In this document: piece by piece, positions 41,776-61,639 of the stretch
How positions within the stretch are numbered: position 1 is the stretch's first letter
Layout of the letters: each line of letters opens with the position of its first letter
From: an uncultured bacterium
Lineage (GTDB): Bacteria > Patescibacteriota > Minisyncoccia > Phycocordibacterales > CAIRYW01
Direction of reading: 5' to 3'
Length of the DNA stretch: 64,000 nucleotides
Assembly (NCBI GenBank): GCA_963766885.1
Contig: CAVYBO010000002.1
Location: forward strand, 293,048 to 357,047
Notes under the pieces: generated by a model
What the model saw: the letters and a program-made list of their open reading frames with translations, nothing else
Told to the model about the DNA's origin: nothing
Databases searched by the model: none
Made by a program: the position numbers and the translations under genes

Positions 41776-41843
41776 AATTTTATTATATCAAAAGTATTTG
41801 CTGGGTGTGTGGGACGATGTTGGAACCTTTATAAAGCAAGAAA

Positions 41844-45999: not shown

Positions 46000-46001
46000 A
46001 A

Positions 46002-47012: not shown

Positions 47013-47015
47013 ATT

Positions 47016-48527
47016 TTAAGAAGATTTATTTTTGATTATTCTTACTATTCCTTTGTCTGCATCCACTTCAACCATATCACCATCTTTCAGAATTTTAGTA
47101 GCAATCTTGGTGCCAATGATACAGGGCTTCTTCATTTCACGGGCAATTATAGAGGCATGACAAGTGACACCGCCCTCATCCGTGACAAAGGCGGCCGCTT
47201 TCTGCATCGCCGGTAAGTAATCAGGACGAGTCATAACAGCAACCAAAACATCACCAGTCTGAACTTTATAAATTTCCTCAACACTCTCAATTATTTTTAC
47301 TTTACCCCTGACAATACCTTTGCTCGCTACAAATCCTTTTAATTCTTGATTTCCTTTCTTATATTCTCCGGTACCGATGCGATCCAGTTTTTCAATCAAA
47401 GGTAAATCAGTTGTAACATCATATTTGCCCTTAACCCAGAGAATAATGCAGTAGTTTATTCTTCTATCCAATTCTTTAGTGTCTATCTTTTCATTTAAAA
47501 CTGCTTCCATTTCTGGAGGAAAAGCATACTTCAATTGTTCCAAAGAATATTTGGTTCTTTTTGATATTTCTTCAAGCAGTTTACTGAAGTAGTGCGTTGC
47601 CCAGAAAGTTCCCTTTTTACGTTCATCCTGCCACCAGTTGAAATCGTCCGTGATTGCAAGCAAAGTGATTTCTTCTTTGGGTAACATAAGCGTTTTGATA
47701 AGGTGTAATTTTTGTTTCTTGTGATCCGAAGCAATTGATTTAATTTCATTTATTTTCTTATCGATTCCTTTAACATCAAGTTTCAGGTATTGATTAATTC
47801 TTTTTTCAAAAAATTCCTCTGTAAGAATATTATCCTTAACATAATTGTTTTGAGTCCAGAAATAATTTTTCTGATGTTTTTTAATAAGAGGATTTTTAAG
47901 TTTTGGATTTGCTTTTACTTTCTTTGCGACTTTTAGTAGCTCAATATCTTCTAACTGTAGGAACGATGTAAAAATTGGAGACGTTAGGATTCCGAAATAT
48001 TCTACAAACCTATTTTCCAATCCTTTGCTTTCAAGAAAGGTTTTAATTTTTGAAGCAATCAATGTGTCAGTACTTAAAGTAAAACCGTCAATTAATCCGG
48101 AGCTGTTCAATTTCTTGGTGTAAATATCAGCCAAACTATTATATTTATCCAAAAGTTCTTTCTTGCTTAAAGAACCGAGGTCAAGACTGTTTAATTTTAA
48201 GCAGTCCTTATAAAACCTTTCTTGCCAAGGCATAAAGTTACTAATCATCTTTCTACTAACTTTAGGATCTTTTTTTGAAGCTTTGATTATTTTGGAAGTT
48301 GTATATTCAAGCTCACCCAAATTGTGATACCAATCCGCTCTATGCTTTGAAAAACCGGCGTATGCAATTCTTTGACCATATTGGTACTTAGTTCTCTGAA
48401 TAGATGATATATGCGAATCACCTAGGAAAAACATAAAGTGGGGACAAGCATCAAATCGTTGCCTGTACCAAAGACTTTTTTCTATCTCCGGCAATCTTGA
48501 TTGTAGTAATTTAGAGTACTTAATCAT
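47016..48527 (-). CDS. PEP-utilizing-enzyme mobile-domain protein, paralog 1
   Basis: 503 aa. C-terminus ELKGFVASKGIVRGKV ... TDEGGVTCHASIIAREMKKPCIIGTKIATKILKDGDMVEVDADKGIVRIIK. Confidence 0.8.
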   Translation of the reverse strand: MIKYSKLLQSRLPEIEKSLWYRQRFDACPHFMFFLGDSHISSIQRTKYQYGQRIAYAGFSKHRADWYHNLGELEYTTSKIIKASKKDPKVSRKMISNFMPWQERFYKDCLKLNSLDLGSLSKKELLDKYNSLADIYTKKLNSSGLIDGFTLSTDTLIASKIKTFLESKGLENRFVEYFGILTSPIFTSFLQLEDIELLKVAKKVKANPKLKNPLIKKHQKNYFWTQNNYVKDNILTEEFFEKRINQYLKLDVKGIDKKINEIKSIASDHKKQKLHLIKTLMLPKEEITLLAITDDFNWWQDERKKGTFWATHYFSKLLEEISKRTKYSLEQLKYAFPPEMEAVLNEKIDTKELDRRINYCIILWVKGKYDVTTDLPLIEKLDRIGTGEYKKGNQELKGFVASKGIVRGKVKIIESVEEIYKVQTGDVLVAVMTRPDYLPAMQKAAAFVTDEGGVTCHASIIAREMKKPCIIGTKIATKILKDGDMVEVDADKGIVRIIKNKSS

Positions 48528-49549
48528 TTTAGTGTTGTAATGGGCCTGCTTTGAGTAATATAGAATTTTCTTTTCTCATATGCCCATTCGATATCACAAG
48601 GGAAATCGTAGTGATTTTCTATTTTTAAGATGAGATCTGAAAATTTCAATATTTCTTTGATAGAAAGGCATTGCTCATTAGCTTTTTTATTTGGGATGTT
48701 TTTCCAAACGTTGCCTCCAGTGGATTTTCTAAATAGCCCTTTTGATTTTTCTGAAACATTTACATCAATGATATTCCTTGGTTCTTTTTCAATTACATAG
48801 CTGTCTGGGGTGATTTGTCCAGAAACAATAGCTTCTCCGAGTCCCCAAGAGGCTTCAATGATCATTTGATTTCTATCTTCCGTAACAGGATGAACAGAGA
48901 AGACGATTCCTGATTTTTCACTATTTACCATTTTTTGGACTACTACAGCCACAGAAATATGAGTATCATTTAATCCTTTTTCAAATCGATAAAATATAGC
49001 TCTCGGGGTAAAAAGTGAAGCAAAACATCTTTTGATATTTTCTTCCAGATTTTTACTTGTTGTATTGAGAAAACTATCTAGTTGACCAGCCCAAGCATGC
49101 ATTGCCCCATCCTCTGCCGTGGCACTTGAACGGACAGCAACAAACTTTGCATTTAATTTCTTAAATGAAGTTTTTACTTCTTTCAGCATTTCTTTGGGCA
49201 TTTTTGCCTCAAGAATCATTTCTTTGATATCTTCGGAAGCTTTTTCAACTTCTTCCATTTCCTTATGGTTTATCTTGTCCAAAATTGCATCAATTTCTTG
49301 AGTTAGATCATTTTCGGATAGAAAGTATTCAAAAGAGCTTGAAAGTATTACAAATCCTGGTGGAACTGGGATTTTGGCATTTATCATTTCACCCAAAGAT
49401 GCCCCTTTACCACCGGCTATTGGAGAGTCGTTTTTGCCCAAATCCTTGAAAAATTTGATGTATTTCACACCAATATTATGCAGTAAATTCACATTATTAT
49501 AAAGGCTAAGAATAAGGCGTCTCGGGCGCAATAACCTAGCTCGTGTCAA
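48524..49549 (-). CDS. Stand-alone PPDK_N-type ATP-binding (ATP-grasp, pyruvate phosphate dikinase / PEP synthase / rifampin phosphotransferase N-terminal) domain protein
   Basis: 341 aa. VKYIKFFKDLGKNDSPIAGGKGASLGEMINAKIPVPPGFVI ... DIEWAY...ITQSRPIT matches the PF01326 start and end. No swivel or TIM-barrel domain. The true start may be an internal GTG (VNLLHNIGVKY), as the annotated N-terminal 25 aa are encoded by a GC-rich patch. Confidence 0.8.
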   Translation of the reverse strand: MTRARLLRPRRLILSLYNNVNLLHNIGVKYIKFFKDLGKNDSPIAGGKGASLGEMINAKIPVPPGFVILSSSFEYFLSENDLTQEIDAILDKINHKEMEEVEKASEDIKEMILEAKMPKEMLKEVKTSFKKLNAKFVAVRSSATAEDGAMHAWAGQLDSFLNTTSKNLEENIKRCFASLFTPRAIFYRFEKGLNDTHISVAVVVQKMVNSEKSGIVFSVHPVTEDRNQMIIEASWGLGEAIVSGQITPDSYVIEKEPRNIIDVNVSEKSKGLFRKSTGGNVWKNIPNKKANEQCLSIKEILKFSDLILKIENHYDFPCDIEWAYEKRKFYITQSRPITTLK

Positions 49550-49666
49550 CTGCGATCTAAGGTCTGGTGCGTACGTAGTTAGACGTCGTAAGGGTATTCT
49601 GACAACTTTTCATCTTCATGAGACACCCGTCTAGGTCTAAGTAAATTTCAAAATATAATGAACAGT
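49550..49666 (-). other. GC-rich, potentially structured 5' leader/intergenic element upstream of the phosphotransferase array
   Basis: An approx. 115-nt patch (plus strand ...cgtctcgggcgc...ggtctggtgcgtacgtagttagacgtcgtaagggtattctgac...gagacacccgtctaggtc) is far above local GC. Contains complementary TAGACG/CGTCTA and palindromic ACGTACGT. Confidence 0.3.
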
Positions 49667-50806
49667 TTATTGCTCTAGAGTCTTTCTCCCTTCCTCAAGT
49701 TCACTACCAGAAAAAACCGTGCTCTTTTTATCCCAATCATTTGTGATTAAATCTGCCTTACGTTTTAACAATTCTATCAATTTGTCGGTATCAATATCTC
49801 CTTCAAAAAGAAAAGCGTAATTTGGATCTTGTTTCAGAATTTTTACCATTTTTTCTTTAGTTGTCCATGGATCATTATCATGTAGAACAACTTTTACATG
49901 ACTAAGGGAATCTTCAAATAAAACAGTATTCTTACTTCCTACTTCTGAGCCGATTGAAACAACCATGCTTTCAGGTGCATCTAATTTTCCAACTGATGTA
50001 ATCTTAACCTGAACCCTAGTATCTTTATGATCTTCTCGTTGGTGATGACGACCAAGGATATATGAATCCTCGTATTGAATCTCGGCTTCACTCACTTTAT
50101 CTTGACGCATTCTTAAATATCTAAGCCACCTTACTGGTGTTTTTGCAGAATCCCACTCAAAAATACCTTCATCCATCCGATTGAATTCTGAATTAACTAG
50201 TTTTTTACTTCCAACTGGATCAAGTTCATAAACCATTTCAGCTGAACCGTACGGAGAATCAGTTTGATTTTCTGAGGCTGTGTTTATAGTCGCAAACGAT
50301 TTATTCATTAAAGAATCTCTAACAAACATAAATTGAATATTCCCGAGGCCTTCACTAGGCGCAGGTTCAGATACACTGATCTCGCGAATCTTATCATCAG
50401 TTTGGGATCGCTTAGGAACCGTAGACAATTTAATGAGCCGCATATTAGTGCCCTTTGCATAATACGGATCAAATCGATCTTCAAAGGAAACTGCCCAATA
50501 TTTTCCTGGATATTCAGCAATAATTGGATAAAATTTCTGCGGCAATTCTATCGCAAACGGATTATCTGAAAACTCATTATTCACATCAGAATATCTAAAA
50601 CCTCCTTCATGTCCCAAATTATTATCCTGAGCAAATTCAAAAAGTTCTCTAGTAAGCCCGAAGAGATTCATCACCTCTTGCCTATTAACAGTAGCAAGAG
50701 TTTCTGGTTGTTCAGAAAGAGTATCTGGCGCCTCTTCAACATTATCGGGCTGATCACCTTGTTTAACTTTAAAAGCTTTTAGACTTCTTTCGAAAGGATT
50801 GTCCAT
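49667..50806 (-). CDS. Hypothetical protein (379 aa), immediately upstream of and co-oriented with the phosphotransferase array
   Basis: No recognisable domain. Acidic N-terminus. Confidence 0.45.
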   Translation of the reverse strand: MDNPFERSLKAFKVKQGDQPDNVEEAPDTLSEQPETLATVNRQEVMNLFGLTRELFEFAQDNNLGHEGGFRYSDVNNEFSDNPFAIELPQKFYPIIAEYPGKYWAVSFEDRFDPYYAKGTNMRLIKLSTVPKRSQTDDKIREISVSEPAPSEGLGNIQFMFVRDSLMNKSFATINTASENQTDSPYGSAEMVYELDPVGSKKLVNSEFNRMDEGIFEWDSAKTPVRWLRYLRMRQDKVSEAEIQYEDSYILGRHHQREDHKDTRVQVKITSVGKLDAPESMVVSIGSEVGSKNTVLFEDSLSHVKVVLHDNDPWTTKEKMVKILKQDPNYAFLFEGDIDTDKLIELLKRKADLITNDWDKKSTVFSGSELEEGRKTLEQ

Positions 50807-50993
50807 GTAAAAAATATAACATATTTCTCACTATTAGACCGAGTTCGGCTAGTGTGAATCCTTGTCCCTGACCAGTCATGGACTCCCACCAAATTAGACT
50901 TGTAAGCAGTTTTTATAAATACACCTATTTTATAGCCCATTTTATATGGAGTGTTTGGAATTTTCAAATACAATGCGCTACAATTAAATTGCT

Positions 50994-51443
50994 ATGAAAG
51001 TAGGAGATGACACTAGAGAAAGGTATAAAAAAGCTATTAATGAGTCCTTCGTTAAGGACCCTTTTATGCCCTTGAGAGATTTACAAAAATATCTTGAAAA
51101 GAAAGGGGTCTATATTTCGAATTTGAATTACCTCAGTGAACTACGTAAAGAAGTCACAAAAGATAATGCTAAAAACGTTAAGGAAGAAACTCGATATAAA
51201 AAATACTCAGAATATTCAGAAAGCTGTCGTATCCTTAGAACTGAGTTATTTAAAATTGCTATTCCTGGATGTCTTGGTGGAAATGATCCTGAAACGACCC
51301 CCAAAGAAAAAATTGCTGCTATAAATGAACTCATGAAACTTGACAAGAACTTAGTTGAAGTTGGATTTATTCTCGGAATATTTGAAGAACATGAGCCCCC
51401 AGTAAATCTAAGAACTGGTAAAGTAAACTATAAACCTCATTGA
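50994..51443 (+). CDS. Hypothetical protein
   Basis: 149 aa, Lys/Glu-rich. No domain recognised. Confidence 0.4.
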   Translation: MKVGDDTRERYKKAINESFVKDPFMPLRDLQKYLEKKGVYISNLNYLSELRKEVTKDNAKNVKEETRYKKYSEYSESCRILRTELFKIAIPGCLGGNDPETTPKEKIAAINELMKLDKNLVEVGFILGIFEEHEPPVNLRTGKVNYKPH

Positions 51444-51453
51444 TTAATTTTCC

Positions 51454-52278
51454 CTAAACAAATTTTTGATTGTTTAATATTAAGTTATAAATCTCTGAAA
51501 GAAAATGTGCAAAAGATAATTCATCCATTATATAAGAAGATGGATGAGCGCAACTATTTCTTATATCAAAAAGATGTAAGATTGCTTGAAGTTGATTTAA
51601 ATCTAGAGAAATCATACCGGAAATTATAATAGTTAGGTCTTTTTCAAAAACCTCTTGTAATTCATTTTCAATTTTAATATTAAATTCTTTATTAAATTTT
51701 TTATAAAATCCAGACTGACTTGCTTTTAGTTTTTTTGATGTTGAGTTGAAACTAGCAAAACCTTTTTTTATTACAAAATCACGAAGTCTATCGACAACGG
51801 CACATCCTGCCATAACAGTCGCTGCTTTATAACATTGATTTTTTGCAGCCCTAAAAGCTTCTTCGTAGTATTGTCTTTCATCATTCGAAGTAATCTTTAC
51901 AAGAATTTTTTGAGATATACCTTCCCAAACCATCGGCGAGGAGCGCCCAGTTCTAATCATCGGGATCAAAATATCTCTCTGTATATTTTTTCTTAAGGGA
52001 CTCAAAAGCGCAATGTATGAACTTTTTCTGTTATTAGCAGTTGACATTTGGATCATCTTTTCCATTACTGAATCTACTTTGTTTATCTCTTCGTCAGAAA
52101 TAACAGACTCTTTTCTTATTTTGGTCGAAAACTCCTCAAACCAACGGCTTGAAAGATTAGATATTTTATCTTTAAGATTTTTTTGAGAGATAAAAGCAGA
52201 TTTGTTTGCTCTTATCTTGTTTACTACATCATCGACATACGTTAGATAGGTCTCAAGTTCCTCTATTATTTCTTTCAT
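51454..52278 (-). CDS. Putative HEPN-domain protein (Rx4H motif), abortive-infection-like
   Basis: 274 aa. C-terminal LHLFDIRNSCAHPSSY contains R-x4-H in the context typical of HEPN RNase motifs. Otherwise alpha-helical. Confidence 0.45.
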   Translation of the reverse strand: MKEIIEELETYLTYVDDVVNKIRANKSAFISQKNLKDKISNLSSRWFEEFSTKIRKESVISDEEINKVDSVMEKMIQMSTANNRKSSYIALLSPLRKNIQRDILIPMIRTGRSSPMVWEGISQKILVKITSNDERQYYEEAFRAAKNQCYKAATVMAGCAVVDRLRDFVIKKGFASFNSTSKKLKASQSGFYKKFNKEFNIKIENELQEVFEKDLTIIISGMISLDLNQLQAILHLFDIRNSCAHPSSYIMDELSFAHFLSEIYNLILNNQKFV

Positions 52279-52286
52279 TTAATTTC

Positions 52287-52889
52287 CTAAGAGGCAAGCT
52301 CTTTTACCAAATCTGCAGCTAACTTTTTACCAATTGGAGAAAGTTTGTTTGTTGTTCCAGGTTTAAATCCAGCAAAAATTTCTTTCATTGCTTTAAGATT
52401 TGTTGTAAAATTTGCAGCGTCATATGTACCATAAGTCACACACATTTCTCTAAGCTCCTCAGTTGGGACATCAAAAGAGCCCTCCATAAATTGATGTCTT
52501 ATTCCTATAAGCAATGCAAGATTTTTTTGTCTTCGGCTAGTTTTATTAGATTTAAGATCAGTGACTTCAATACTTATATTCCCTAATTCATCTATACTAA
52601 AAACTTTACGGATTAAATCATCACTAATACCGTTTGGGGTTGTAAAGACTTTTATTCTTTTGTTTACTTCATTAGGAATATCTGATACACCCGCAACAAT
52701 AGTATCAGTTATTGAAACCGGAGGTTTATGAGATTCTCCTTTTAGCAAAGAATTTAAGAGAATTTCGAAGCATTTTTCCTGAAGGTTTTGGGGGCACAAT
52801 TTAACTAGTTCAAGAATTTCCTTTAACTCTTTTTTAAAATCATCTTTTTGCATGGCTAAAATAATAACACAAATTTCTTTATAGGCCAA
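52287..52889 (-). CDS. Hypothetical protein (200 aa), in an operon with the flanking defence-like genes
   Basis: 8-nt gap to the downstream HEPN gene. No known domain. Confidence 0.4.
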   Translation of the reverse strand: MAYKEICVIILAMQKDDFKKELKEILELVKLCPQNLQEKCFEILLNSLLKGESHKPPVSITDTIVAGVSDIPNEVNKRIKVFTTPNGISDDLIRKVFSIDELGNISIEVTDLKSNKTSRRQKNLALLIGIRHQFMEGSFDVPTEELREMCVTYGTYDAANFTTNLKAMKEIFAGFKPGTTNKLSPIGKKLAADLVKELAS

Positions 52890-52958
52890 GCTTATTTTGA
52901 ACTACTCTTAGATCTTCTAACATAATTCTAAACAGCCGTATCTCTTGATAAATAATTA

Positions 52959-54359
52959 TTAATATCTTGTATCTACATAATATCCATTCCTACCATTGCA
53001 AGGATAGCCATCTTTAGTTTTATGGGGACTTAATGTCACATTACCATATGTGCTTCTAGTAAAGCGTCTACCACAATAACTACATTCATAAATATATTTC
53101 GGACCAGAAAAACTTCTCGCTATAACAGATCTATGTCTTGCCGCACGAAATGGTTTGTTTATATCAAAAAAATAAGGATTTTCTGGTCTTTCTCCGGATT
53201 TGGATAACTCTATTTGATATCGAGGAATAAATTTTTCTTCTGTGTTTACTATCCCTTCAACTTTATCTGCAACAAAACATCTTACACCGACTCCGCTACC
53301 ACCACTAAGATTATAGGCGTAAAAATACTCCCGTTGAGATCCGTCCTTGCGTTGCATATATTTTAGCGAGTATGGTTCAATCATTCTATCTGAATCTGTG
53401 TAACGGATTTTCAAAAGAGTTTGTTCTCTTGCACCTTTCATTATTACTGCACGCGCCTCAGGACTGAAATATACAAACTGAGCATACCCGTTGTCGGTAT
53501 AAATACCAAAAAGAGATTCAACGTCAGATACAAAAGATGTGATAGCATCTTCTACATCAATAAAAAGTTGTTTTGCACAGACTATACCTTTTACCCAATA
53601 GGTTCTGAAATAATCAAAAGCTGTCATCTTCAGTACATCTTTTAACGCGTAAGGATTTCTTTCAAAAATGGTCTTTTTTACAAAGGTTTGTACCACCTCC
53701 TCTTTATTCAAGTTTCCTCCTAACAACCGGATTGAGTGGACATAGTCAAACAAATCTGGAGCATGCTGTCTTTGCATTAAACATTTTAGTTTTGTTGCAA
53801 TTATCTCCTCAAGTTTCATACACCTGATCTTACATACGACCTCAGCAGCATCAGAATAAGGATGAATAAGATAAACATCTTGTATATCGAGAAGAACTTT
53901 ATCGAATCTAGTGATATCCATCGATATCTTTATTTTCATATGATCTGATCCTCCATTAAAATCCTTAAAATAGATTCGTGCTTCATATACTTTCAAGCCA
54001 GGTATTGGGGCTTCGGCTGCTGCAAACTTTTCTTCAATTTTATTATCTTCTTTAACAAAAGTTATACCTGCTTTTTCCTGAATAAAATCACAAACCTTAT
54101 TGATTTCACCCAATAGTAAATTTTGATCAATATCACCCATGATTCCAAAATCTAAGTCTGAAGAAAATCGAGTATTTTCAAAATACCCTTTACGAAGAGC
54201 ATTTCCTCCTTTTAGAAAGATCTCATTTTTTAGATCACTTATTGTGAAAAGGCCAAAAAGAAACCAGCCAAATAGATAATCCCTTTCGACGTTGGTCGGG
54301 TGAATCTCAAATTCTTTTGATTTCGCTTCAATTTCGTCTCTTAGAATCATAACCGCCAT
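52959..54359 (-). CDS. AbiEii/DUF1814-type nucleotidyltransferase fused to a WYL domain and C-terminal zinc ribbon
   Basis: 466 aa. NTase core FLKGGNALRKGYFENTRFSSDLDFG (AbiEii KGGTAL...RFSEDIDF-like pol-beta fold). WYL-like LLKIRYTDSDRMIEPYSLKYMQ...REYFYAYN...VRCFVADKVEGI. C-terminal YECSYCGRRF...CNGRNG. Confidence 0.7.
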   Translation of the reverse strand: MAVMILRDEIEAKSKEFEIHPTNVERDYLFGWFLFGLFTISDLKNEIFLKGGNALRKGYFENTRFSSDLDFGIMGDIDQNLLLGEINKVCDFIQEKAGITFVKEDNKIEEKFAAAEAPIPGLKVYEARIYFKDFNGGSDHMKIKISMDITRFDKVLLDIQDVYLIHPYSDAAEVVCKIRCMKLEEIIATKLKCLMQRQHAPDLFDYVHSIRLLGGNLNKEEVVQTFVKKTIFERNPYALKDVLKMTAFDYFRTYWVKGIVCAKQLFIDVEDAITSFVSDVESLFGIYTDNGYAQFVYFSPEARAVIMKGAREQTLLKIRYTDSDRMIEPYSLKYMQRKDGSQREYFYAYNLSGGSGVGVRCFVADKVEGIVNTEEKFIPRYQIELSKSGERPENPYFFDINKPFRAARHRSVIARSFSGPKYIYECSYCGRRFTRSTYGNVTLSPHKTKDGYPCNGRNGYYVDTRY

Positions 54360-54430
54360 TATACCCCTCTAGGTCATTTGGTACGATTTTTAAACGGCTG
54401 GACGTCTGGAACGATGTTGGAACTGTATTG

Positions 54431-55121
54431 CTAAGATAGCCAAGTGATACCATCTTTGTCTATTCGTGCCGAATTAATCGGTAATCCTATGTCTGGCGTG
54501 CCAGCGTCAATTTCAAGTTGTACAAGAAATCTCGCTCCTTTTTCTGTCGAAATGATACTCCCGGTACCATGTTTTTTTAGATATTCTTGAATTACTTTAG
54601 CGTGGCCAAGATAAAAAATATGTCTACCTGCAAGTCGCTCTGTGTCAATAATTAGTTCTCCTTTTTCATTTAACTTTGCAGCGAAACGAATAGCGATAGT
54701 AGAAGGCCCATCCATTCTCCCAATGAGCAAGAATGACACATGTTCCTTTCTTATCACCTTCAGTTTCATTTTTAAAAACATCTGGTTCATTAGTTTTAAT
54801 TTTAAGTAAGAATTTCTTAAGCGCTTCCGAAATATTTGTTTCTAATTTATTAATTGTACTAGGAACTGTCTGACCATCCTGTATGGAAGCTTCAACTATT
54901 TTAGCTACATCAAAATCCCCACCGTGATGTTTTACCAAACCACTTACCCCGAAGAGATTGTCTTTATATTCAAAAAGTTTTTTTACTTCACTTTGACTTT
55001 TTTGTTTTCCTCCACCAACAAAAGTACCCATTCCGTCAGCTGCAATTACAACCATTTGAGAATTTTGAATTGCAACAATAGTTGTTCCATAACGTATTGT
55101 TTTTTTGATTTTTTTTATCAT
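54431..55121 (-). pseudogene. HslV / proteasome-beta-like Ntn hydrolase with a 12-aa propeptide, split across two frames (frameshift or sequencing error)
   Basis: Frame 1 (55121-54666): MIKKIKKTIRYG|TTIVAIQNSQMVVIAADGMGTFVGGGKQ...[26 protein letters not shown] aligns with HslV [21 protein letters not shown]...[23 protein letters not shown]. Frame 2 (54790-54431) continues with HVSFLLIGRMDGPSTIAIRF..., proteasome-like. The two frames overlap by 125 nt. Confidence 0.6.
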
Positions 55122-55163: not shown

Positions 55164-55838
55164 TCAATTTTCTTCAATATTTTGTAGTAGTTTACTCATA
55201 AGAGTAAAAACCCTATCGAAATTCTTCTTCGAATCTAATTTAGTTTTTTGTCCTATCGGTACTAAAGATTTAATAACCCTTTTCATTTCATTTCGAAATT
55301 TTGAGTTTGTTTTATTCCCCGAATGCTGAATTATATTTCTTATAGAATTTAAAACATTAAAATAATGCCCCTGTTTATCATCTTTAAAGACTTTAATATT
55401 AAATTTTTCTAATAAAAATTTTTTCCACTCTTTGATTTCGTAGGATTTATTAATAGCAAATGCATCAATAAAATATTCTTTTACTTCCTCAACATTAGAA
55501 AAATCTTTTACGTCATCATATGTTGCCACTTTATCAGAAGAGTAGGACTCAGGATATTTAACAAAAAGCTCTTTCAAAAACTCAAACATAAAACATTCAA
55601 AATTAGAGAAAAAGGCAACAAAACCCAATTCGTAGAGTTTATCAATCTGTTTTGGATCTACTTCAAGTAAATCCTTAAATTTTTCATAATCAGGTCGCGT
55701 CTTTGCTTTTGTATAGTTCAAAAATTCTTGAGTGGCAATCGTTTGAGCTTCTAGTGCACGTATAAGTTTATAGGTAGCCTGAAGTTCACCCTTTAGATTT
55801 ATTACTGAATCAAATTTATTTAAGTTTTTTATAGTCAC
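55164..55838 (-). CDS. Putative HEPN-domain protein (Rx4H motif)
   Basis: 224 aa. C-terminal NVLNSIRNIIQHSGN contains R-x4-H. All-alpha. Confidence 0.45.
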   Translation of the reverse strand: MTIKNLNKFDSVINLKGELQATYKLIRALEAQTIATQEFLNYTKAKTRPDYEKFKDLLEVDPKQIDKLYELGFVAFFSNFECFMFEFLKELFVKYPESYSSDKVATYDDVKDFSNVEEVKEYFIDAFAINKSYEIKEWKKFLLEKFNIKVFKDDKQGHYFNVLNSIRNIIQHSGNKTNSKFRNEMKRVIKSLVPIGQKTKLDSKKNFDRVFTLMSKLLQNIEEN

Positions 55839-55922: not shown

Positions 55923-57005
55923 CTATTCGTTCTCCTTTTTATCCTCTTTTTTGTAACCCTCTGATAGGAAACCACTACTTAATCCGTAAAATTTATTCTG
56001 CTGTAATTTAAATATTTTCTTATTTCTTAAATCAATTTGTTTTTTTGAATTGTATAAAGCCTTTTGTTCTTCCAAATGTTTTATGGTTTCCTCATCATCA
56101 TCAGCTTTTGGCTCGCGAGGTTTCTCAATGGTAGGGGTTATAACTTCTGCGCTTACACCATTTTCAAAATGTTTCAGCAATAACTTAAAAAGTATTCTTA
56201 TGTTACTTTTGTTTTCGTGGTTTTCAATTTTTAATTGTTTTGTAAGTTCTTCAATTATAGCTTCACTTTTTTCTTCCTTGTCAGCGTCATTAATATCATC
56301 CATAGCCTTCTTTCTGTCATCTCTGAGATGTTCGTAAGCCTTTTTTGCCGCCTCCGTCATTTGAATTGTTTCGTATATTTTAAGAGCGTGTTCAAGCGCA
56401 ATACCAAAATAATGTGCAAGTTGTTCACCTGTTTGTATAAATATTTGTATTGTTCCGTTACTTACATAACTAATTATGAATTCTTTATCCTGATTAGTCG
56501 CTGTTGCAATTTCAACCAAAAATAATTTTAAGTCATGTAGAACTTCTTCAAAATTTGTTAATTTTTGGTATTCAAGTGGAAAAGAAAATCCGATCTCATA
56601 TTCTTTTTCAGTTAGTTCTCTTGCTTCAATATCTAGAGCATTGAGAGAATTTTTAATTGTATTTAGTTTGTCTATAGCCTCTTGACGTTGTGTTGTAAAA
56701 TCTGTAAGTTTTTTTAAAACCTCATGTCCTTGGCTACTTAAGATATTGTTTAACTCTATCCATGTTCGATCTCCAAAAAAAGTTTCTATCTTCAAATCTT
56801 CAAGAATTTCAAAATCTGTTAAAGCATAGTTAGATAGGCGTGTTTTATTAAGTTCTTTTTCAAGAGAACTTAATTCAGTATTTAATACATCTGGTGTATT
56901 TTGAGTATAAAGGGCAAGTATATTTTGGAATTTAGCCTGAAGTCCAAAGTTTTTTTCGTCTTGTTGAATATCCTCTATAACTTTTAGTAGTTTACCTGTA
57001 TCCAT
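55923..57005 (-). CDS. Hypothetical acidic coiled-coil protein
   Basis: 360 aa, Glu/Lys-rich, predicted long coiled coils. Confidence 0.4.
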   Translation of the reverse strand: MDTGKLLKVIEDIQQDEKNFGLQAKFQNILALYTQNTPDVLNTELSSLEKELNKTRLSNYALTDFEILEDLKIETFFGDRTWIELNNILSSQGHEVLKKLTDFTTQRQEAIDKLNTIKNSLNALDIEARELTEKEYEIGFSFPLEYQKLTNFEEVLHDLKLFLVEIATATNQDKEFIISYVSNGTIQIFIQTGEQLAHYFGIALEHALKIYETIQMTEAAKKAYEHLRDDRKKAMDDINDADKEEKSEAIIEELTKQLKIENHENKSNIRILFKLLLKHFENGVSAEVITPTIEKPREPKADDDEETIKHLEEQKALYNSKKQIDLRNKKIFKLQQNKFYGLSSGFLSEGYKKEDKKENE

Positions 57006-57048: not shown

Positions 57049-57834
57049 CTAGTTTAACCTATTAACAATTTGATTAAGAAAATCTCTAGTCTGCGAATCC
57101 ACAGCACCATAATCAGTATTTATCGGCGTCCTTGTAATGACATTCTCGTAAACATCAGCAAAATCTTCTGAGGGAGAAGAAGCATAACTTTCAGTAGGAT
57201 CATTTCCATCATCGTCTTCTAAGGGCATATTTGCAGGTATACCTCTAAGTGCATAATATTCTTTCCATTCTTGAGCTGTTAAAGTACCTGCAACAGCATG
57301 GCCGAGTTCGTGTGTAAGATCTCCTGCAAAATTATTGTTTAACACAATTTTGTTTATGTATATCAATGACTGACCGCTTCTATATCTGCTATATGAAGCC
57401 CCTTCTGAAAGCCACATCGTATTTAGAGGTGGTAGCTTAGCGGATAAGCCGTTGCTTGGCTCGATGATGTATTGATTATCTGAGTATGCCAAACTATTGA
57501 CAATAATTATCGGAATATTTTTTAACATACTCTCAGGAAATTTTGCATTGTAAACAATTTGAGTAATCTGATTTTTTAAATCGTCAGTTAAGTCATTTGT
57601 ATTCGGGTAATCTATTTGTCCTAGATAAAAAGTGTAGCCGAGATTATTTACCTGTTCTAAAGGAATTTGATTAGATGATGAGGGGTTTGATTGTTTTTCA
57701 GAAAGATTGTTTACAAAAGCGTGTAGTTCATAGCAAAAAGTTTGCGTTGGACAGTCTGTAATTCTCCATTGAAAGAAGATATATGTTCCGATTAACAGAA
57801 TAAAAATTATTATGAATGAATATGTATTTTTCAT
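57049..57834 (-). CDS. Secreted/membrane-anchored putative zinc metallopeptidase (HExxH)
   Basis: 261 aa. N-terminal signal anchor and LTHELGHAVAG motif. Confidence 0.5.
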   Translation of the reverse strand: MKNTYSFIIIFILLIGTYIFFQWRITDCPTQTFCYELHAFVNNLSEKQSNPSSSNQIPLEQVNNLGYTFYLGQIDYPNTNDLTDDLKNQITQIVYNAKFPESMLKNIPIIIVNSLAYSDNQYIIEPSNGLSAKLPPLNTMWLSEGASYSRYRSGQSLIYINKIVLNNNFAGDLTHELGHAVAGTLTAQEWKEYYALRGIPANMPLEDDDGNDPTESYASSPSEDFADVYENVITRTPINTDYGAVDSQTRDFLNQIVNRLN

Positions 57835-58035: not shown

Positions 58036-58908
58036 GTGTATTCTTATAGCACTCAAATGACAGACTTAGCCGAAAGCCTTAATACGCGCCTTAACTTAGC
58101 CGTCCAGAGCACATCGGACAGAGACTTTTACCAGTGTCTCTATCACTATTTTGATTTCATAGAAAAAACGCCAGAACTGAAAAAGATTTTTGAAGATAGT
58201 GAGAAAGACTATTCAGAAAAACACGGTAAGCGATGGGAAAAGCGTCCAATGACAGATGATGAAGCTGAAGAGGCAGAATCTCAAACCATTAAGTTAGAGC
58301 GTTTTAACTTGTATGCTGTGGGATGCACAATTTATGTAAGAATATATTTGCCGATTGACGATTACAAAAATACTGATGCGCCAGATAATAAACAAGACCC
58401 CGTTGCCCTTCTTCTTGTTCGCGGAATGGATTACACCGTCAAGCTAAAAAAATGGAGCGAAAAAACTTTGAAAATATATAACAAATGGTTTGATGGTAAG
58501 CGTAATCTTTACGAATCAGAACTGAAACGTTTTCATGTCATGCTTTTAGATGAGTTAGCAAAGCCAAAACCAAGGACAACAAGTAAACCAGAAATTATTT
58601 TTGATAAAGAAAACAGTATCTTAAAAATAGATGACAAAGAAGTCCATATAAAACTAAAAAATGATTTACCCAATTCGCATTATGTTTTAGAGTATGTTTT
58701 TACTAACGAAGACGGTCTAAAAGAAAAATCTTTTTATAGCGATATCCTAGAGTCAAAATTTCCTGCTGAAAAAATGGACTGGCGATCTATTTATCGTGCT
58801 TGTAACGACATAAACAAAAAAGTTAGCGAACAAGCCAACATAAATAAATTTTTTATAGTAAAAACTGGTAAAACAGGCTATGCGCAAATAAATTCTGACT
58901 ATTTGTAA
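58036..58908 (+). CDS. Hypothetical protein (290 aa), first gene of a plus-strand mobile module
   Basis: No known domain. Followed by a weak CCCC-GA-GGGG hairpin plus T run (58957-58979). Confidence 0.45.
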   Translation: MYSYSTQMTDLAESLNTRLNLAVQSTSDRDFYQCLYHYFDFIEKTPELKKIFEDSEKDYSEKHGKRWEKRPMTDDEAEEAESQTIKLERFNLYAVGCTIYVRIYLPIDDYKNTDAPDNKQDPVALLLVRGMDYTVKLKKWSEKTLKIYNKWFDGKRNLYESELKRFHVMLLDELAKPKPRTTSKPEIIFDKENSILKIDDKEVHIKLKNDLPNSHYVLEYVFTNEDGLKEKSFYSDILESKFPAEKMDWRSIYRACNDINKKVSEQANINKFFIVKTGKTGYAQINSDYL

Positions 58909-59113
58909 ATCGTACCCGTAAGATACCGTAATAGTGTTTAGAGACAATCTCCTCAACCCCGAGGGGATTTTATGTTTTTACAATTCAGCCAAATATTAAT
59001 AATACGCATCCAGAAATACTTTAAGCAGAAGCATAGTATCGATATTTCTGATGAAGTTGCCAATGAATACTTGCACTCTCTAGCAGGAATGTTTGCTGTG
59101 CTTGCAGAGATGG

Positions 59114-59168
59114 AAGGGGGCAAGTCCCCGCCCGATCCTCTTGAGAGGACGGGCGGGGCTGACCCCGT
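59114..59168 (+). other. Cluster of G+C-rich hairpins (GGGGG-caagt-CCCC; CCCCGCCCG-N15-CGGGCGGGG; GGGG-ctga-CCCC) immediately upstream of the rep gene; candidate double-strand origin / nick site or terminator
   Basis: 9-bp perfect GC stem 59126-59134/59150-59158 with nested and overlapping alternative stems. Exceptional GC for this genome. Sits 35-90 nt upstream of the Rep start. Confidence 0.4.
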
Positions 59169-59201
59169 TTGATGACTTGCTAATTACCCAACTCAATACA
59201 A

Positions 59202-59978
59202 ATGAAAAAGAAAAGTGAATACGTAAAAATTATTATTTCAGGAAAAAATTTAGAAACATATGAATACGAACGAAAACCAAACCCTATCAGACGGAGAAAT
59301 AGAAGAAAAAGCAAAGATACTGATGGTGATGAGAATCTGGGAGTTAGTGGACAAGATACATTTTCGGAAAGAAAGCTGGGGAAAAGACAAGATCACGCAC
59401 GACACGCTGGTATGGATTTCCGAAGGCTTGTTACATCTAACCTTGTCGGAACTGAACTTCCTGTACTCGTTACTCTTACCTATAAGGAAAACATCACCGA
59501 TATCAGTGTCGGATACAAGGACTATCGGTCTTTTATCCAGTCTCTCCGCTATAAATACGGAAAAGTTTTCAGGTACGTCTGTGTCCCAGAATTTCAAGGG
59601 CGTGGTGCCGTTCATTTTCACGCTTTGTTCTGGGGGCTACCCGCTGAATTATTTTTACATGAACGAAAAACTCGTCTCCTCGCAGGAATATGGGCAAAAG
59701 GATTTGTTTACGTAAAGTTTACTGATGGTCACGAAAAAATATCTTCTTACTTATCAAAATATATGCAAAAAGCTTTTATTGATCCAAGATTAAGAAATCA
59801 AAAGGCCTATGTGGCCTCTAGAAATATAAAGCGTCCATATGTAAAATCGGGCTCTTTTTCTGTTTCCTATATCATTGACGATTATGTTGGTGATGACAGC
59901 TCTCCTGTGATAGATAAGACCTACGACACTAAATGGCTAGGTAAATGTAGGTATCGGGTATTCAAGGCTTCCAATTAA
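59202..59978 (+). CDS. Rolling-circle replication initiator (HUH endonuclease; phiX174 gpA / Microviridae VP4-like Rep)
   Basis: 258 aa. Motif II KVFRYVCVPEFQGRGAVHFHALFWG (HUH) and motif III SYLSKYMQK (YxxKYxxK catalytic Tyr), with the spacing typical of superfamily I Rep proteins. Confidence 0.75.
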   Translation: MKKKSEYVKIIISGKNLETYEYERKPNPIRRRNRRKSKDTDGDENLGVSGQDTFSERKLGKRQDHARHAGMDFRRLVTSNLVGTELPVLVTLTYKENITDISVGYKDYRSFIQSLRYKYGKVFRYVCVPEFQGRGAVHFHALFWGLPAELFLHERKTRLLAGIWAKGFVYVKFTDGHEKISSYLSKYMQKAFIDPRLRNQKAYVASRNIKRPYVKSGSFSVSYIIDDYVGDDSSPVIDKTYDTKWLGKCRYRVFKASN

Positions 59979-60003
59979 TAAATAAAAGTGATTATATAAT
60001 GCT

Positions 60004-61518
60004 ATGAAATACATACTTTACTGCCGAAAATCAACAGAATCAGAAGACAGACAGGTTCTATCATTAGAATCCCAAAGAAAAGAACTCTTGGATTTGGCAA
60101 AATATGAAGACCTTGAAATTATTCTGACTCTTGAAGAAAGCAAATCGGCCAAAGAGCCAGGCCGTCCTATTTTTAACGAAATGCTTCAGATGATTTCTTC
60201 AGGAAAAGCAGATGCTATTCTCTGTTGGAAAATTGATCGTCTCACAAGAAATCCTGTTGATGGCGGACAAGTACAATGGCTTCTTCAAAACGGAATGATT
60301 AAACACATAAGAACTTTTGAAAAAAGTTTCTATTCTAACGATAATGTTTTGCTTATGGGTATTGAACAGGCTATGGCTAATCAATACGTTATAGATTTAA
60401 GTCTGAATGTTAAAAGAGGTCATCGTACAAAACTTGAAAAGGGCGACTGGCCTAATAAAGCTCCTTTTGGATATATCAACGATAAAGTCAGCAAAACTAT
60501 TAAGATTGATAAAAAATTTGGCTCATATGTTTTTAGAGCCTTTGAATTATATTCAACAGGTGGATACACGTTAAAACAAATTTCAGATATTTTGTATCAA
60601 GAAGGAATGAGAACAAAAACTGGAAATAAGATTAAGAAGAGCCAAATTCACAGAATTCTACACAATAAGCTTTACTGTGGCTTGATGGAGAAAGACGGAA
60701 AAACATATCATGGCAATCATGAAGCATTAATCTCTGTTTCTCTATTTAATAAAGTTGATGATGTTTTGCATGGCAGGCATCATCCTCGTCCAAATATACA
60801 CTTCTATTCTGCACGTGGATTTCTATCTTGTGCTTCTTGTGAATGTACTTTAACTACTGATACAAAAAAAGGTTACATTTATTATTACTGCACTAATGGC
60901 AAAGGAAACTGTGAGCAACATAAAAAATATCTAAGATCGGAAATGATTGATTCTCTTCTTTCAAGTATGTTCAAGGAACTGGCCTTTGACAAAGAGTTGA
61001 TTGAAATGGCTGCAGAAGCCTATAAAGAGAGAAATGAGCTCAAAAACGACTATACTGCTTCAAGCATAGAAAACCTCTCTAATGAGCTTAATTCTCTTCT
61101 GGAAAAAGAATCTGCCCTCGTAGATGGATATAGTTCTAAGATAATACGTGAAGAAGTTTATAGAGCCAAGGTTCAGGAAATACAAAACAAACGCATAGAA
61201 ATTGAGAAACAAATCAAAGAAACTGAAGCTAAAGGCGGAATAAGTAAAGTCACTTTCGAACAGATCAAAAATGTCTTTTTAGATAGTAGTAGAGCCTCAG
61301 AAACGTATTTGGAACTTACGGAAGAAGAAAAGAGAAAGATGCTAGAAAAATTACTTTCGAACGCTTCTATAGAAAACCAAAAAATCGTTAAATACCAATT
61401 CAAAAGTCCATATCAGATACTTGCAAATACCTCAAAAAATACCGATTTGGAAACACTACTGCGGGACCTGGATTCGAACCAAGATACCCTGCTCCAGAGG
61501 CAGATGTCCTACCATTAG
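60004..61518 (+). CDS. Large serine recombinase (resolvase/invertase catalytic domain + recombinase + zinc-ribbon + coiled coil)
   Basis: 504 aa. N-terminal YCRKSTESEDRQVLSLESQ (catalytic Ser), DRLTRN, and a downstream Cys cluster (CASCEC...CTNGKGNC). The last approx. 20 codons overlap tRNA-Gln on the opposite strand, so the true C-terminus may be shorter. Confidence 0.85.
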   Translation: MKYILYCRKSTESEDRQVLSLESQRKELLDLAKYEDLEIILTLEESKSAKEPGRPIFNEMLQMISSGKADAILCWKIDRLTRNPVDGGQVQWLLQNGMIKHIRTFEKSFYSNDNVLLMGIEQAMANQYVIDLSLNVKRGHRTKLEKGDWPNKAPFGYINDKVSKTIKIDKKFGSYVFRAFELYSTGGYTLKQISDILYQEGMRTKTGNKIKKSQIHRILHNKLYCGLMEKDGKTYHGNHEALISVSLFNKVDDVLHGRHHPRPNIHFYSARGFLSCASCECTLTTDTKKGYIYYYCTNGKGNCEQHKKYLRSEMIDSLLSSMFKELAFDKELIEMAAEAYKERNELKNDYTASSIENLSNELNSLLEKESALVDGYSSKIIREEVYRAKVQEIQNKRIEIEKQIKETEAKGGISKVTFEQIKNVFLDSSRASETYLELTEEEKRKMLEKLLSNASIENQKIVKYQFKSPYQILANTSKNTDLETLLRDLDSNQDTLLQRQMSYH

Positions 61519-61529
61519 ACGATCCCGCA
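61459..61529 (-). tRNA. tRNA-Gln (anticodon CUG)
   Basis: Minus-strand sequence TGCGGGATCGTCTAATGGTAGGACATCTGCCTCTGGAGCAGGGTATCTTGGTTCGAATCCAGGTCCCGCAG folds into a cloverleaf. 7-bp acceptor with U1-A72, D-loop AATGGTA, anticodon loop CTCTGGA (U33, CUG, G37), T-loop TTCGAAT, discriminator G. CCA not encoded. Confidence 0.85.
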
Positions 61530-61639
61530 AAATATTCAAGGAATACAAAAAAGCTGTTGTCAGCTTTTGAACCTATAGATTAGCGTTTTTTGGGTAAAAA
61601 ATCAAAAGCTGTGGATTTGTAATAAAGGAATAAGTGGTA

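Follow-up and report, generated by a model that had tools for sequence, protein, structure and literature searches.

Evidence for an integrated rolling-circle element with a large serine recombinase at a tRNA-Gln gene of a Patescibacteria chromosome

Introduction

Genomes of Patescibacteria (candidate phyla radiation, CPR) are about 0.6 Mb in size, and gene exchange among such cells is barely understood. What sort of DNA, in this setting, is a short block of plus-strand genes that runs into a minus-strand tRNA-Gln gene? The block lies near the end of a 64,000-nucleotide (nt) stretch of contig CAVYBO010000002.1 (positions 293,048 to 357,047 of the forward strand; hereafter, the window) from an uncultured bacterium, which PyrG neighbors and the names of Rep homologues place in the Patescibacteria, Paceibacteria type. 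An annotation made from the letters alone (the original prediction) read the block as a small integrative rolling-circle element of plasmid or single-stranded DNA (ssDNA) phage character, starting at 58036, with a recombinase of the serine and not the tyrosine type acting at the tRNA gene.

Profile searches and about 190 related loci uphold the character of the element and shift its left end. We put at roughly 0.7 the probability that an integrated mobile element of ~7.06 kb (about 54.40 to 61.46 kb of the window) sits at the 3' end of tRNA-Gln(CTG) in this chromosome, and hold with equal confidence that the plus-strand block is its replication-integration core. Rather than beginning at 58036, the element most likely reaches left to ~54.4 kb and includes a LOOT RNA and a minus-strand operon. 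Its left boundary and its current mobility are points that we infer.

Results

The plus-strand block encodes a rolling-circle initiator and a large serine recombinase

The three plus-strand open reading frames (ORFs) that the original prediction had named, a hypothetical protein, an HUH rolling-circle replication initiator (Rep), and a large serine recombinase (LSR), are all present, at 58036 to 58908, 59202 to 59978, and 60004 to 61518, respectively. Profile searches match the Rep, a protein of 258 amino acids (aa), to PF23343 (REP_ORF2-G2P; E = 3e-20, 72.7 bits against a cutoff of 27.8) and to phrog_3419, "rolling circle DNA replication initiation" (E = 9e-29). Motif I (LVTLTY), motif II (HFHALFWG), and a two-tyrosine motif III (YLSKYMQK) place it among the HUH Reps. 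An alignment of 31 Rep sequences shows no variation at H138, H140, Y183, K186, Y187, and K190 or in motif I. Together with the profile matches, these residues indicate that motifs II and III, first picked out from the letters alone, are genuine.

Homologues of the Rep (n = 224; 50 to 65% identity) come almost entirely from metagenome-assembled genomes (MAGs) of Patescibacteria and from metagenomes. The nearest annotated relatives are the Reps of Bacillales rolling-circle plasmids of 1.5 to 8 kb, which carry little besides Rep (~34% identity, near full length), of "bajarodino" viruses, and of Ralstonia filamentous phages (~31% identity by tblastn). A match to RepSA (PF20199) is below threshold (21 bits against a cutoff of 34), and relatives of the Rep likewise have weak precomputed matches to this family; a search of PDB sequences with the Rep profile gave no match. 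On the question of Microviridae VP4 versus plasmid Reps, the protein is of the inovirus/plectrovirus G2P and small Bacillales rolling-circle plasmid type, and VP4 proteins are more distant.

The LSR (integrase; 504 aa) contains a Resolvase domain (PF00239; E = 4e-18, residues 4 to 149) with the motif YCRKSTESEDRQ at the N terminus, a Recombinase domain (PF07508; E = 8e-15), and a Zn_ribbon_recom domain (PF13408) that lies just above its cutoff (25.5 versus 25.3 bits). It matches the phrog_95 integrase over residues 1 to 469 (E = 6e-79), and its best full-length relative among PDB sequences is SPbeta YokA/SprA. By these matches, the protein belongs to the large serine recombinases.

Rep-LSR pairs recur at tRNA genes and are present or absent at the same site in relatives

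As predicted, the LSR ORF enters the minus-strand tRNA-Gln(CTG) gene, and the two overlap by 61 nt. This tRNA (61458 to 61530, minus strand; ARAGORN, Rfam 57.4 bits) is intact, is the only tRNA in the window, and is the putative integration target. The conserved part of the LSR protein (…FKxPxxILAKxPKN…) stops ~25 nt short of the tRNA; the final ~19 codons read the tRNA in antisense.

To place this arrangement in context, we fetched 191 Rep loci (identified below by L numbers) from genome, viral, and metagenome collections, with a ceiling of 80 per collection scan. An LSR gene lies directly 3' of Rep in 114 of the 189 loci used in this count. Where enough sequence was available downstream (89 evaluable pairs), the end of the LSR ORF overlaps or abuts a minus-strand tRNA in 75; the 14 exceptions include several frameshifted LSRs. 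The target tRNAs cover at least 13 specificities (Gln, 36; Glu, 15; and Tyr, Ser, Leu, Asn, Trp, Asp, Lys, Arg, Ile, Pro, and Val), and three or four copies occupy different tRNAs within single MAGs.

The linkage of pyrG to tRNA-Gln(CTG) is conserved in relatives and is ancestral in the group. A search for empty sites was fruitful at this level: the orthologous pyrG-tRNA-Gln(CTG) site holds a Rep-LSR element in the window, L002, L039, and L168 and is empty in L192, L194, L195, and L196. Neither outcome that the original prediction had named as refuting it, Rep motifs unsupported by profiles or relatives with unchanged content and no indel boundary, was seen. The profile-confirmed Rep motifs and this pattern of presence and absence indicate that the element is mobile on an evolutionary time scale. 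Among the "empty" sites, where L194 (12862 to 12980) is compared with L195 (6591 to 6640) and L196, PyrG is identical, a replacement of 45 to 115 nt lies directly 3' of tRNA-Gln(CTG), and identity then resumes; the replacement may be the scar of an earlier integration or excision.

tRNA-mimicking motifs mark the proposed ends of the element

The proposed left junction, which we call the M-site (54397 to 54424, plus strand), reads G-CTG-GACGT-CTGGA-ACGATGTT-GGAAC and would be attL, or attP-like. It mimics the 3'-terminal ~23 nt of the tRNA-Gln gene (A-CTG-CGGGAC-CTGGA-TTC-GAACC). A second mimic, the outer L-site (41800 to 41826, plus strand; G-CTG-GGTGT-GTGGGA-CGATGTT-GGAACC), is homologous to it, and the two form a repeat in direct orientation (repeat family D13). 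The right junction, attR, would lie at 61435 to 61483, where an element arm in the 3' end of the LSR gene meets the acceptor/T-arm of the tRNA.

The mimicry is spacing shifted. The distance between the shared CTG and GAAC is 20 nt in the M-site and the L-site and 15 nt in the tRNA, and this shift of +5 was found in four of four comparisons (window M-site, window L-site, L016, and L026). In serine integrases, the motif bound by the zinc-ribbon domain lies 5 bp farther out in attP than in the attB half-site; such a 5-bp outward shift was reportedly described for large serine integrases by Rutherford and Van Duyne in 2013. Because the mimicry and the GAAC shift are shared across genomes, we read the motif at 54397 to 54424 as an attP-derived left arm, which would make it the left end of the element, with the crossover in or near the shared CTG (54398 to 54400 and 61459 to 61461). 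Two other sources for the motif were discarded. Copies from different genomes and tRNA loci have the same derived features, which speaks against a decayed host tRNA fragment, and a related Glu-type motif keeps its nucleotides and not its reading frame, which speaks against a protein-coding remnant.

A profile built from eight copies of the mimic site gave 35 matches with E < 0.3 across related loci, a small number of them from duplicate loci. All are on the Rep (plus) strand and all lie upstream of Rep (binomial P = 6e-11), 5 to 20 nt past the stop codon of the last gene in the minus-strand block. The M-site follows the stop of the last minus-strand gene by 7 nt, and L002, L039, L168, and L112 have the same arrangement. 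Further, tRNA 3'-end repeats are joined to the conserved arm at the left ends of five loci: L026 (tRNA-Glu; GTGATCCTACGGGGA joined to GCGATTTGGAACCG), L016 (tRNA-Tyr; GTGCGCCG joined to TCTGGGACGAAGTGGGAACC), L147 and L020 (repeats of 19 to 20 nt), and L117 (14 nt). Between L136 and L158, inter-element homology begins exactly at the mimic motif, 122 nt into the contig. L039 and L029 each have another LSR gene upstream, with the motif at its 3' end, indicating that the elements there are in tandem.

Series of motifs also occur. In L030 (5613 to 7463) and L158 (127 to 1090), three or four mimic motifs lie 0.4 to 1.4 kb apart and separate short segments without a recombinase; those of L030 lie beyond a 91-nt tRNA-Arg(TCT) gene.

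No displaced tRNA fragment or inverted repeat was seen: the window holds no repeat of the tRNA region of at least 11 nt (a 28-mer with up to three mismatches; k = 11 to 24; both strands). A crossover at the very 3' end of the tRNA would account for this absence, as it would leave the tRNA intact and create no long direct repeat. Joining the ends on paper, the attP of the 7.06-kb circle would read ...ATACCGATTTGGAAACACTA-CTG-GACGTCTGGAACGATGTTGGAACTGTATTGC... (61439 to 61461 joined to 54401 onward) and the empty attB ...GGTACGATTTTTAAACGG-CTG-CGGGACCTGGATTCGAACCAAG... (54381 to 54400 joined to 61462 onward); the equivalent CTG of the L-site is at 41801 to 41803. Across the predicted attP, the computed LSR tail changes from …LLRDLDSNQDTLLQRQMSYH in the integrated form to …LLR(D/V)WNDVGTVLLR in the circle. 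Most copies of the left-arm motif preserve the reading W-x-D-V-G-T.

Assembly ends bear on the right junction. A same-strain Logan contig spans 41819 to 61487; its right end lies 30 nt beyond the 3' terminus of the tRNA (k - 1 for k = 31), and the next contig starts at 61563. Similarly, 8 of 11 JGI contigs with related elements that stop just past the tRNA end 120 to 127 nt after its 3' end (the others at 101, 173, and 234 nt). These lengths fit k values of 123 and 127, which presumably were those of the assembler, and agree with terminal overlaps of 121 to 123 nt in circular contigs described below. Ends that lie a length of k - 1 past the tRNA 3' end indicate that co-assembled alleles diverge at the tRNA 3' terminus.

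A conserved hairpin upstream of rep is a probable nick origin

A GC-rich hairpin with the stem arms CCCCGCCCGATCCTC and GAGGACGGGCGGGG around TTGA lies at 59126 to 59158 (plus strand), within the 59114 to 59168 region that the original prediction had proposed as an origin or nick site. Folded as DNA, it has a free energy of -22.8 kcal/mol (z-score, -5.9), and none of 200 shuffled sequences is as stable. The hairpin of the window is CTCTTGAGA, its hairpin-loop stretch CCTCTTGAGAGG, and its loop CTCTTGA.

Hairpins lie 20 to 120 nt upstream of Rep in many loci; their stem sequences differ and the loop CTT[N]A is kept. Examples are GCTTTAGC in L004, CTCCTTGAGGA in L029, CTCTTATGA in L121, and GCTTAAGA in L137; the L010 group has the loop CTTGCTT. 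Under strict criteria (a stem of 6 bp or more without mismatches, together with the loop motif), hairpins were found in 30 of 149 windows upstream of Rep compared with 75 of 2,694 controls (Fisher P = 1e-15). The hairpin TGCCTTTAGGC is present in circular contigs that encode a Zot-like protein and have no recombinase (L083, L174, and L176).

The hairpin does not stand in a pure intergenic spacer; it sits in the 3' part of a small conserved ORF (66 aa; 58972 to 59172, plus strand). This ORF is conserved only in its first ~45 residues; the C-terminal part, which the hairpin overlies, is variable and not conserved as protein, suggesting that selection there acts on the DNA structure and not on the peptide. 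Covarying stems, the conserved loop motif, and the same hairpin in circular phage-like relatives strengthen the case for an origin: the hairpin is probably the double-strand nick origin, with the nick in or beside the loop CTCTTGA. The loop resembles CTTG/ATA nick sites of the pC194/phiX174 group and CTTT/AATAG of f1 (slashes mark the nick), a likeness that we take as a lead only. Cleavage by Rep is predicted within the loop, at CTTG/A.

HUH enzymes also serve as relaxases and transposase-like nickases, and the protein of the window could in principle act in mobilization or single-strand transfer rather than in replication of the element. It has a weak match to Helitron_like_N (E = 6e-4, below cutoff), and a single-strand origin was not identified in the element. 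Its best relatives, however, are the initiators of filamentous phages and of rolling-circle plasmids of 1.5 to 8 kb, and the same Rep and hairpin occur together in circular 5-kb phage-like genomes, which makes a relaxase or nickase role very unlikely.

LOOT RNA and a divergent operon lie to the left of the plus-strand block

The first plus-strand gene (58036 to 58908) encodes a 290-aa protein with a helical N-terminal domain and a C-terminal winged-helix domain of the OmpR/ToxR type, as judged from an AlphaFold model (pLDDT, 93.8) and Foldseek. The best folds for residues ~185 to 290 are the DNA-binding domains of ToxR, ArlR, and VicR, with Foldseek probabilities of 0.96 to 1.0 and E values (0.06 to 0.8) that are not significant. 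Trans_reg_C is weakly matched in 2 of 16 homologues, and JGI names one homologue a winged helix-turn-helix (wHTH) protein. Homologues lie upstream of Rep in L004, L008, L011, L002, and L023 and within prophages that encode a Zot-like (pI) ATPase. The protein is likely a regulator of the element; the model supports the winged-helix assignment and does not establish it. Directly 3' of the gene, at 58912 to 58932, are TACC(C)GTAA repeats; in L150, L115, and L002, similar TACCGTA/TACGGTA repeats come at the equivalent place, right behind the homologous gene's stop codon. They are a possible operator for the winged-helix protein. Homologues of the adjoining 66-aa ORF lie directly upstream of Rep in about 45 loci and have only weak matches to HTH_33; the ORF may encode a regulator or a directionality factor.

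Divergent from the rep operon is a LOOT RNA (Rfam RF03000; 57866 to 57984, minus strand), which matches the model over its full length (positions 1 to 121) with 91.4 bits against a gathering threshold of 46.4. It lies 32 nt upstream of a 261-aa ORF. In an alignment of nine copies, 18 of 32 base pairs covary, and a covariance model built from these copies found LOOT in 11 nonredundant loci, 0.4 to 1.4 kb upstream of Rep and always antisense to it. The loci listed are the window, L035, L030, L027, L004, L029, L040, L112, L113, L114, L117, and L147. LOOT always lies 18 to 60 nt upstream of an ORF on the same strand or slightly overlaps it, and these ORFs are mutually unrelated: they encode HExxH secreted proteins, PD-(D/E)xK-like, DUF2726-like, and DUF559-like proteins, and small Zn-ribbon or membrane proteins. 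Rfam lists LOOT as a small RNA (sRNA); its position suggests a cis-acting 5' leader of a mobile-element cargo operon. The main text of the paper that reported LOOT contains no discussion of it. LOOT is not a universal component of the family, being confined to the subclade of the window and two weak distant matches (L054 and L042), where it and its gene are in the opposite orientation and still beside Rep.

The operon behind LOOT has four genes or more on the minus strand. The 261-aa product of the first (57049 to 57834) has an N-terminal hydrophobic segment and an HELGH (HExxH) motif, and homologous HExxH proteins follow LOOT in L112 and L147. The second (55923 to 57005) encodes a 360-aa protein with no significant family match in Pfam or PADLOC. 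The third (55164 to 55838) encodes a weakly HEPN-like protein of 224 aa (PADLOC CARF_HEPN, E = 1.5e-4; no Pfam match). The last gene or genes (54431 to 55121) appear as two overlapping ORFs in different frames (54431 to 54790 and 54666 to 55121) and are called as a single 229-aa gene in the same-strain Logan contig; the sole match is a Proteasome-like one below threshold (E = 3e-4). No virion-assembly, coat, or conjugation genes were found in the element with Pfam and PHROG profiles.

Might the element instead be the 3.5-kb block alone (58.0 to 61.5 kb), with LOOT and the genes to its left belonging to the host? The plus-strand block does start at 58036, and the genes at 54.4 to 57.0 kb are found in no Rep-LSR relative. 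Several observations make so short an element highly improbable. The antisense position of LOOT beside Rep recurs in the 11 loci at different tRNAs and in different hosts, and even the weak LOOT copies of L054 and L042, turned the other way with their gene, stay next to Rep. In L117 and L112, LOOT and its operon lie between an att-like site and Rep, and the profile search found no att-like site at 57.8 to 58.0 kb. These two loci are the closest relatives in architecture: L112 has an att-like site, three minus-strand genes, LOOT, a 232-aa plus-strand ORF at the position of the 290-aa gene (a match by position only), Rep, LSR, and tRNA-Gln; L117 has an att-like site, two genes, LOOT, a small ORF, Rep, LSR, and tRNA-Gln.

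A probable older island adjoins the element

Left of the M-site, the minus-strand segment at 41827 to 54396 is bounded by two direct att-like sites. By Pfam and PADLOC, it holds a PPDK_N gene, five PEP-utilizer genes, two ORFs without assignment, a HEPN-like gene, a gene for a 200-aa protein, and AbiEii. A tblastn search found no remnants of Rep or LSR at 1 to 58 kb. We interpret the segment as an earlier insertion that was pushed away from the tRNA. The original prediction had offered the whole defense island next to the block as its cargo; on our reading, the genes at 54.4 to 57.8 kb lie inside the element, and those at 51.4 to 54.4 kb (AbiEii and HEPN-like) lie in the older neighboring segment.

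The gene content of the older segment has some features of its own. At 41844 to 49549 (minus strand), the PPDK_N (ATP-binding) gene is followed, in an operon-like arrangement, by five paralogues of 336 to 556 aa, each ending in a PEP-utilizer mobile (phospho-histidine) domain, with 62 to 76% DNA identity at their 3' ends. At 51454 to 54359 (minus strand), an AbiEii nucleotidyltransferase toxin of 466 aa, with a long C-terminal extension and a Cys-rich end, adjoins the 200-aa protein and a weakly RiboL-PSP-HEPN-like protein of 274 aa; no AbiEi-like antitoxin was recognized there.

The mobile unit could also be the entire 19.6 kb from about 41.8 to 61.46 kb, one genomic island that has Rep and LSR at its right end, with the site at 54.4 kb an internal relic. 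Both att-like sites are in direct orientation, and the Logan contig (41819 to 61487) starts within the outer site and ends 30 nt into the tRNA; its start, however, is 11 nt off the predicted junction. In the closest relatives (L112, L117, L039, L168, and L002), the site comes right after the short LOOT-led operon and the elements are 4 to 7 kb, and the serial sites of L030 and L158 delimit short segments. We regard a 19.6-kb unit as unlikely and retain the 7.06-kb element.

Filamentous phage relatives and the case for a maintained lineage

The Rep family extends into filamentous phages. Circular contigs of 4.9 to 5.2 kb (L083 to L085, L174, and L176), with terminal overlaps of 121 to 123 nt, carry a Rep 47 to 49% identical to that of the window together with genes for a Zot-like P-loop ATPase, a large secreted protein, and small membrane proteins, which is a filamentous-phage layout. 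In 43 loci, these circular contigs among them, the gene directly upstream of Rep is Zot-like (pI); 10 of the 43 also have an LSR and a tRNA and are complete prophages, with Reps 27 to 33% identical to the window Rep. No Zot-like gene is present in the window element or in the Rep-LSR loci of its clade, so the element, having neither pI nor coat genes, is not classed as a phage.

The lack of Zot-like and coat genes, the existence of related Zot-Rep-LSR-tRNA prophages, and the fact that no excised form was seen could all be taken to mean that an inovirus-like prophage lost its morphogenesis genes here and decayed into an immobile remnant. Yet about 100 Rep-LSR loci without Zot have intact ORFs with 50 to 65% aa identity and have kept their catalytic residues, which argues for a maintained lineage rather than independent decay. 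That all Rep-LSR loci of the window clade are without the Zot-like gene, and that assemblies break at the tRNA junction, likewise make a dead prophage quite improbable, and we continue to read the locus as an integrated element of a mobile lineage.

Several observations weigh against the element as we have drawn it. The left boundary rests on motif homology and position; the left end of the Logan contig (41819) is closer to the outer than to the inner site and exact for neither; and the two arms that flank the element are not obvious inverted repeats, as serine-integrase half-sites usually are. Defining attL and attR by synteny with empty sites, as the original prediction had envisaged, failed at this locus: the nearest genomes (PyrG, 76 to 79% identity) have no synteny left of the tRNA, no junction can be drawn from them, and the sequence downstream of the tRNA in the nearest genomes found by PyrG has no counterpart anywhere in the window. 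A candidate 3'-end remnant of an older recombinase directly left of the M-site proved weak when compared with the right-end arm (85 of 2,000 shuffles did as well; P ~ 0.04), and its counterpart at the L-site is not significant. The cargo gene at 54431 to 55121 may be frameshifted or may carry a strain indel. None of the 191 loci is a circular contig with both Rep and LSR, and hence no excised form was seen; the 14 circular contigs found are all Rep-only genomes, filamentous-phage-like or of microvirus size, without an LSR. Finally, we identified in the element neither a recombination directionality factor nor a single-strand origin nor a transfer function; the 66-aa ORF and the wHTH protein may be candidates, and only candidates, for the first of these.

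Discussion

A working model can be assembled from these parts. The LSR would recombine attP with an attB formed by the acceptor/T-arm of the tRNA; the domains, gene order, and tRNA adjacency are observed, and the chemistry is taken from the family. The left arm would be a mimic of the tRNA 3' end with GAAC 5 bp farther out, and sequence comparison puts the crossover at the extreme 3' end of the tRNA. As the LSR gene reaches the junction, its tail would switch between tRNA-antisense codons in the integrated form and ...WNDVGTVLLR* in the circle. Excision to a 7-kb circle, Rep nicking, and reintegration would form the cycle: after excision, Rep would nick the loop of the GC hairpin just upstream of rep and start rolling-circle replication; the Rep motifs are observed, comparison supports the origin, and the activity itself is presumed. 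The winged-helix protein and the small conserved ORF probably regulate the operon, and the divergent LOOT-led operon would carry cargo. With no morphogenesis genes, transfer probably depends on a helper, for example, related Zot-encoding filamentous phages of the same phylum with the same type of Rep and origin, or else on DNA uptake; both routes are speculative. Successive insertions would stack at the same tRNA, the segment at 41.8 to 54.4 kb being an older island without a recombinase.

Taken more broadly, and only tentatively, filamentous phages may have given rise to a large and so far undescribed family of minimal integrative ssDNA replicons, with hosts in the Patescibacteria and some other lineages. 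Such replicons would have lost their virion genes and behave as helper-dependent satellites or like plasmids; an LSR attP that is a spacing-shifted tRNA mimic would allow one recombinase clade to retarget among many tRNAs; serial stacking would build defense and cargo islands; and cargo would be expressed through LOOT as a 5' leader rather than as a free-standing sRNA. A literature search of incomplete coverage found no description of the Rep-LSR-tRNA family or of the link between LOOT and it, and the family is apparently undescribed.

A compact and abundant element family with variable cargo (nuclease-like, HEPN-like, and secreted proteases) would give gene flow and the building of defense islands a concrete vehicle in these organisms. 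Related LSRs aimed at the 3' ends of different tRNAs would be of interest for integrase engineering, all the more so if every one of them has an attP that mimics a tRNA. LOOT, an orphan RNA motif, gains a testable genomic context, and the window gains an annotation, an integrated element at ~54.4 to 61.46 kb and an older island at 41.8 to 54.4 kb.

Comparison with known systems

The LSR shares its domain architecture with the large serine integrases of phages (A118/LI, Bxb1, phiC31, and SPbeta SprA), and its proposed attP arm would have their 5-bp outward shift. Those enzymes mostly use coding or intergenic targets and have an attP that is no tRNA mimic, whereas here the target is the tRNA acceptor/T-arm, with many specificities in one clade. 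In SCCmec composites and in accretion of cis-mobilizable elements (CIMEs) and integrative and conjugative elements (ICEs), tandem stacking at the 3' end of one gene leaves recombinase-less segments between att-like direct repeats. The stacking proposed here is alike in using one conserved 3' gene end; those systems, however, rely on CcrAB or tyrosine integrases, target rlmH, fda, or tRNA-Lys, and have no Rep.

Satellites offer another parallel. RS1, the satellite of CTXphi, integrates and keeps genes for replication, integration, and regulation; it has no morphogenesis genes and is packaged by its helper phage. This is the behavior that we propose for the window element, with helper dependence argued from gene content here, but RS1 integrates at dif by means of host XerCD and encodes no recombinase. 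Actinomycete integrative and conjugative elements (AICEs) of the pSAM2 type excise, replicate with a rolling-circle Rep, and reintegrate in a tRNA gene, using a tyrosine integrase, Xis, and an FtsK-like transfer protein. The window element likewise would be a small integrative rolling-circle replicon at a tRNA gene, but it has no tyrosine integrase and no FtsK-like gene, and its RepSA match is below threshold, which sets it apart from the AICEs.

The filamentous phages provide the remaining comparisons. A survey by Roux et al. (2019, PMC6813254) described inoviruses in CPR hosts and counted serine recombinases among the integration genes of inoviruses. The circular contigs and the 10 tRNA-integrated prophages found here resemble them in carrying a Zot-like gene beside a homologous Rep. 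That survey was anchored on pI, so Rep-LSR elements without pI, such as that of the window, would be missed by it. In Ralstonia solanacearum, phiRSM1 and phiRSM3 encode their own serine recombinase, and their attP matches the 3' end of tRNA-Ser (PMC4471427). They resemble the window element in having a rolling-circle Rep of the same broad family, their own serine recombinase, and a tRNA 3' end as target. They differ in that their recombinase is small and of the resolvase/invertase type and they are complete viruses, whereas the window encodes an LSR of ~500 aa and no virion genes and belongs to a Patescibacteria host; with no small resolvase here, tRNA 3'-end targeting is the one trait shared with the phiRSM-type integration module as such. 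By analogy, then, the element looks like a cross between an integrating filamentous phage of the phiRSM type and a satellite or AICE-like integrative rolling-circle replicon.

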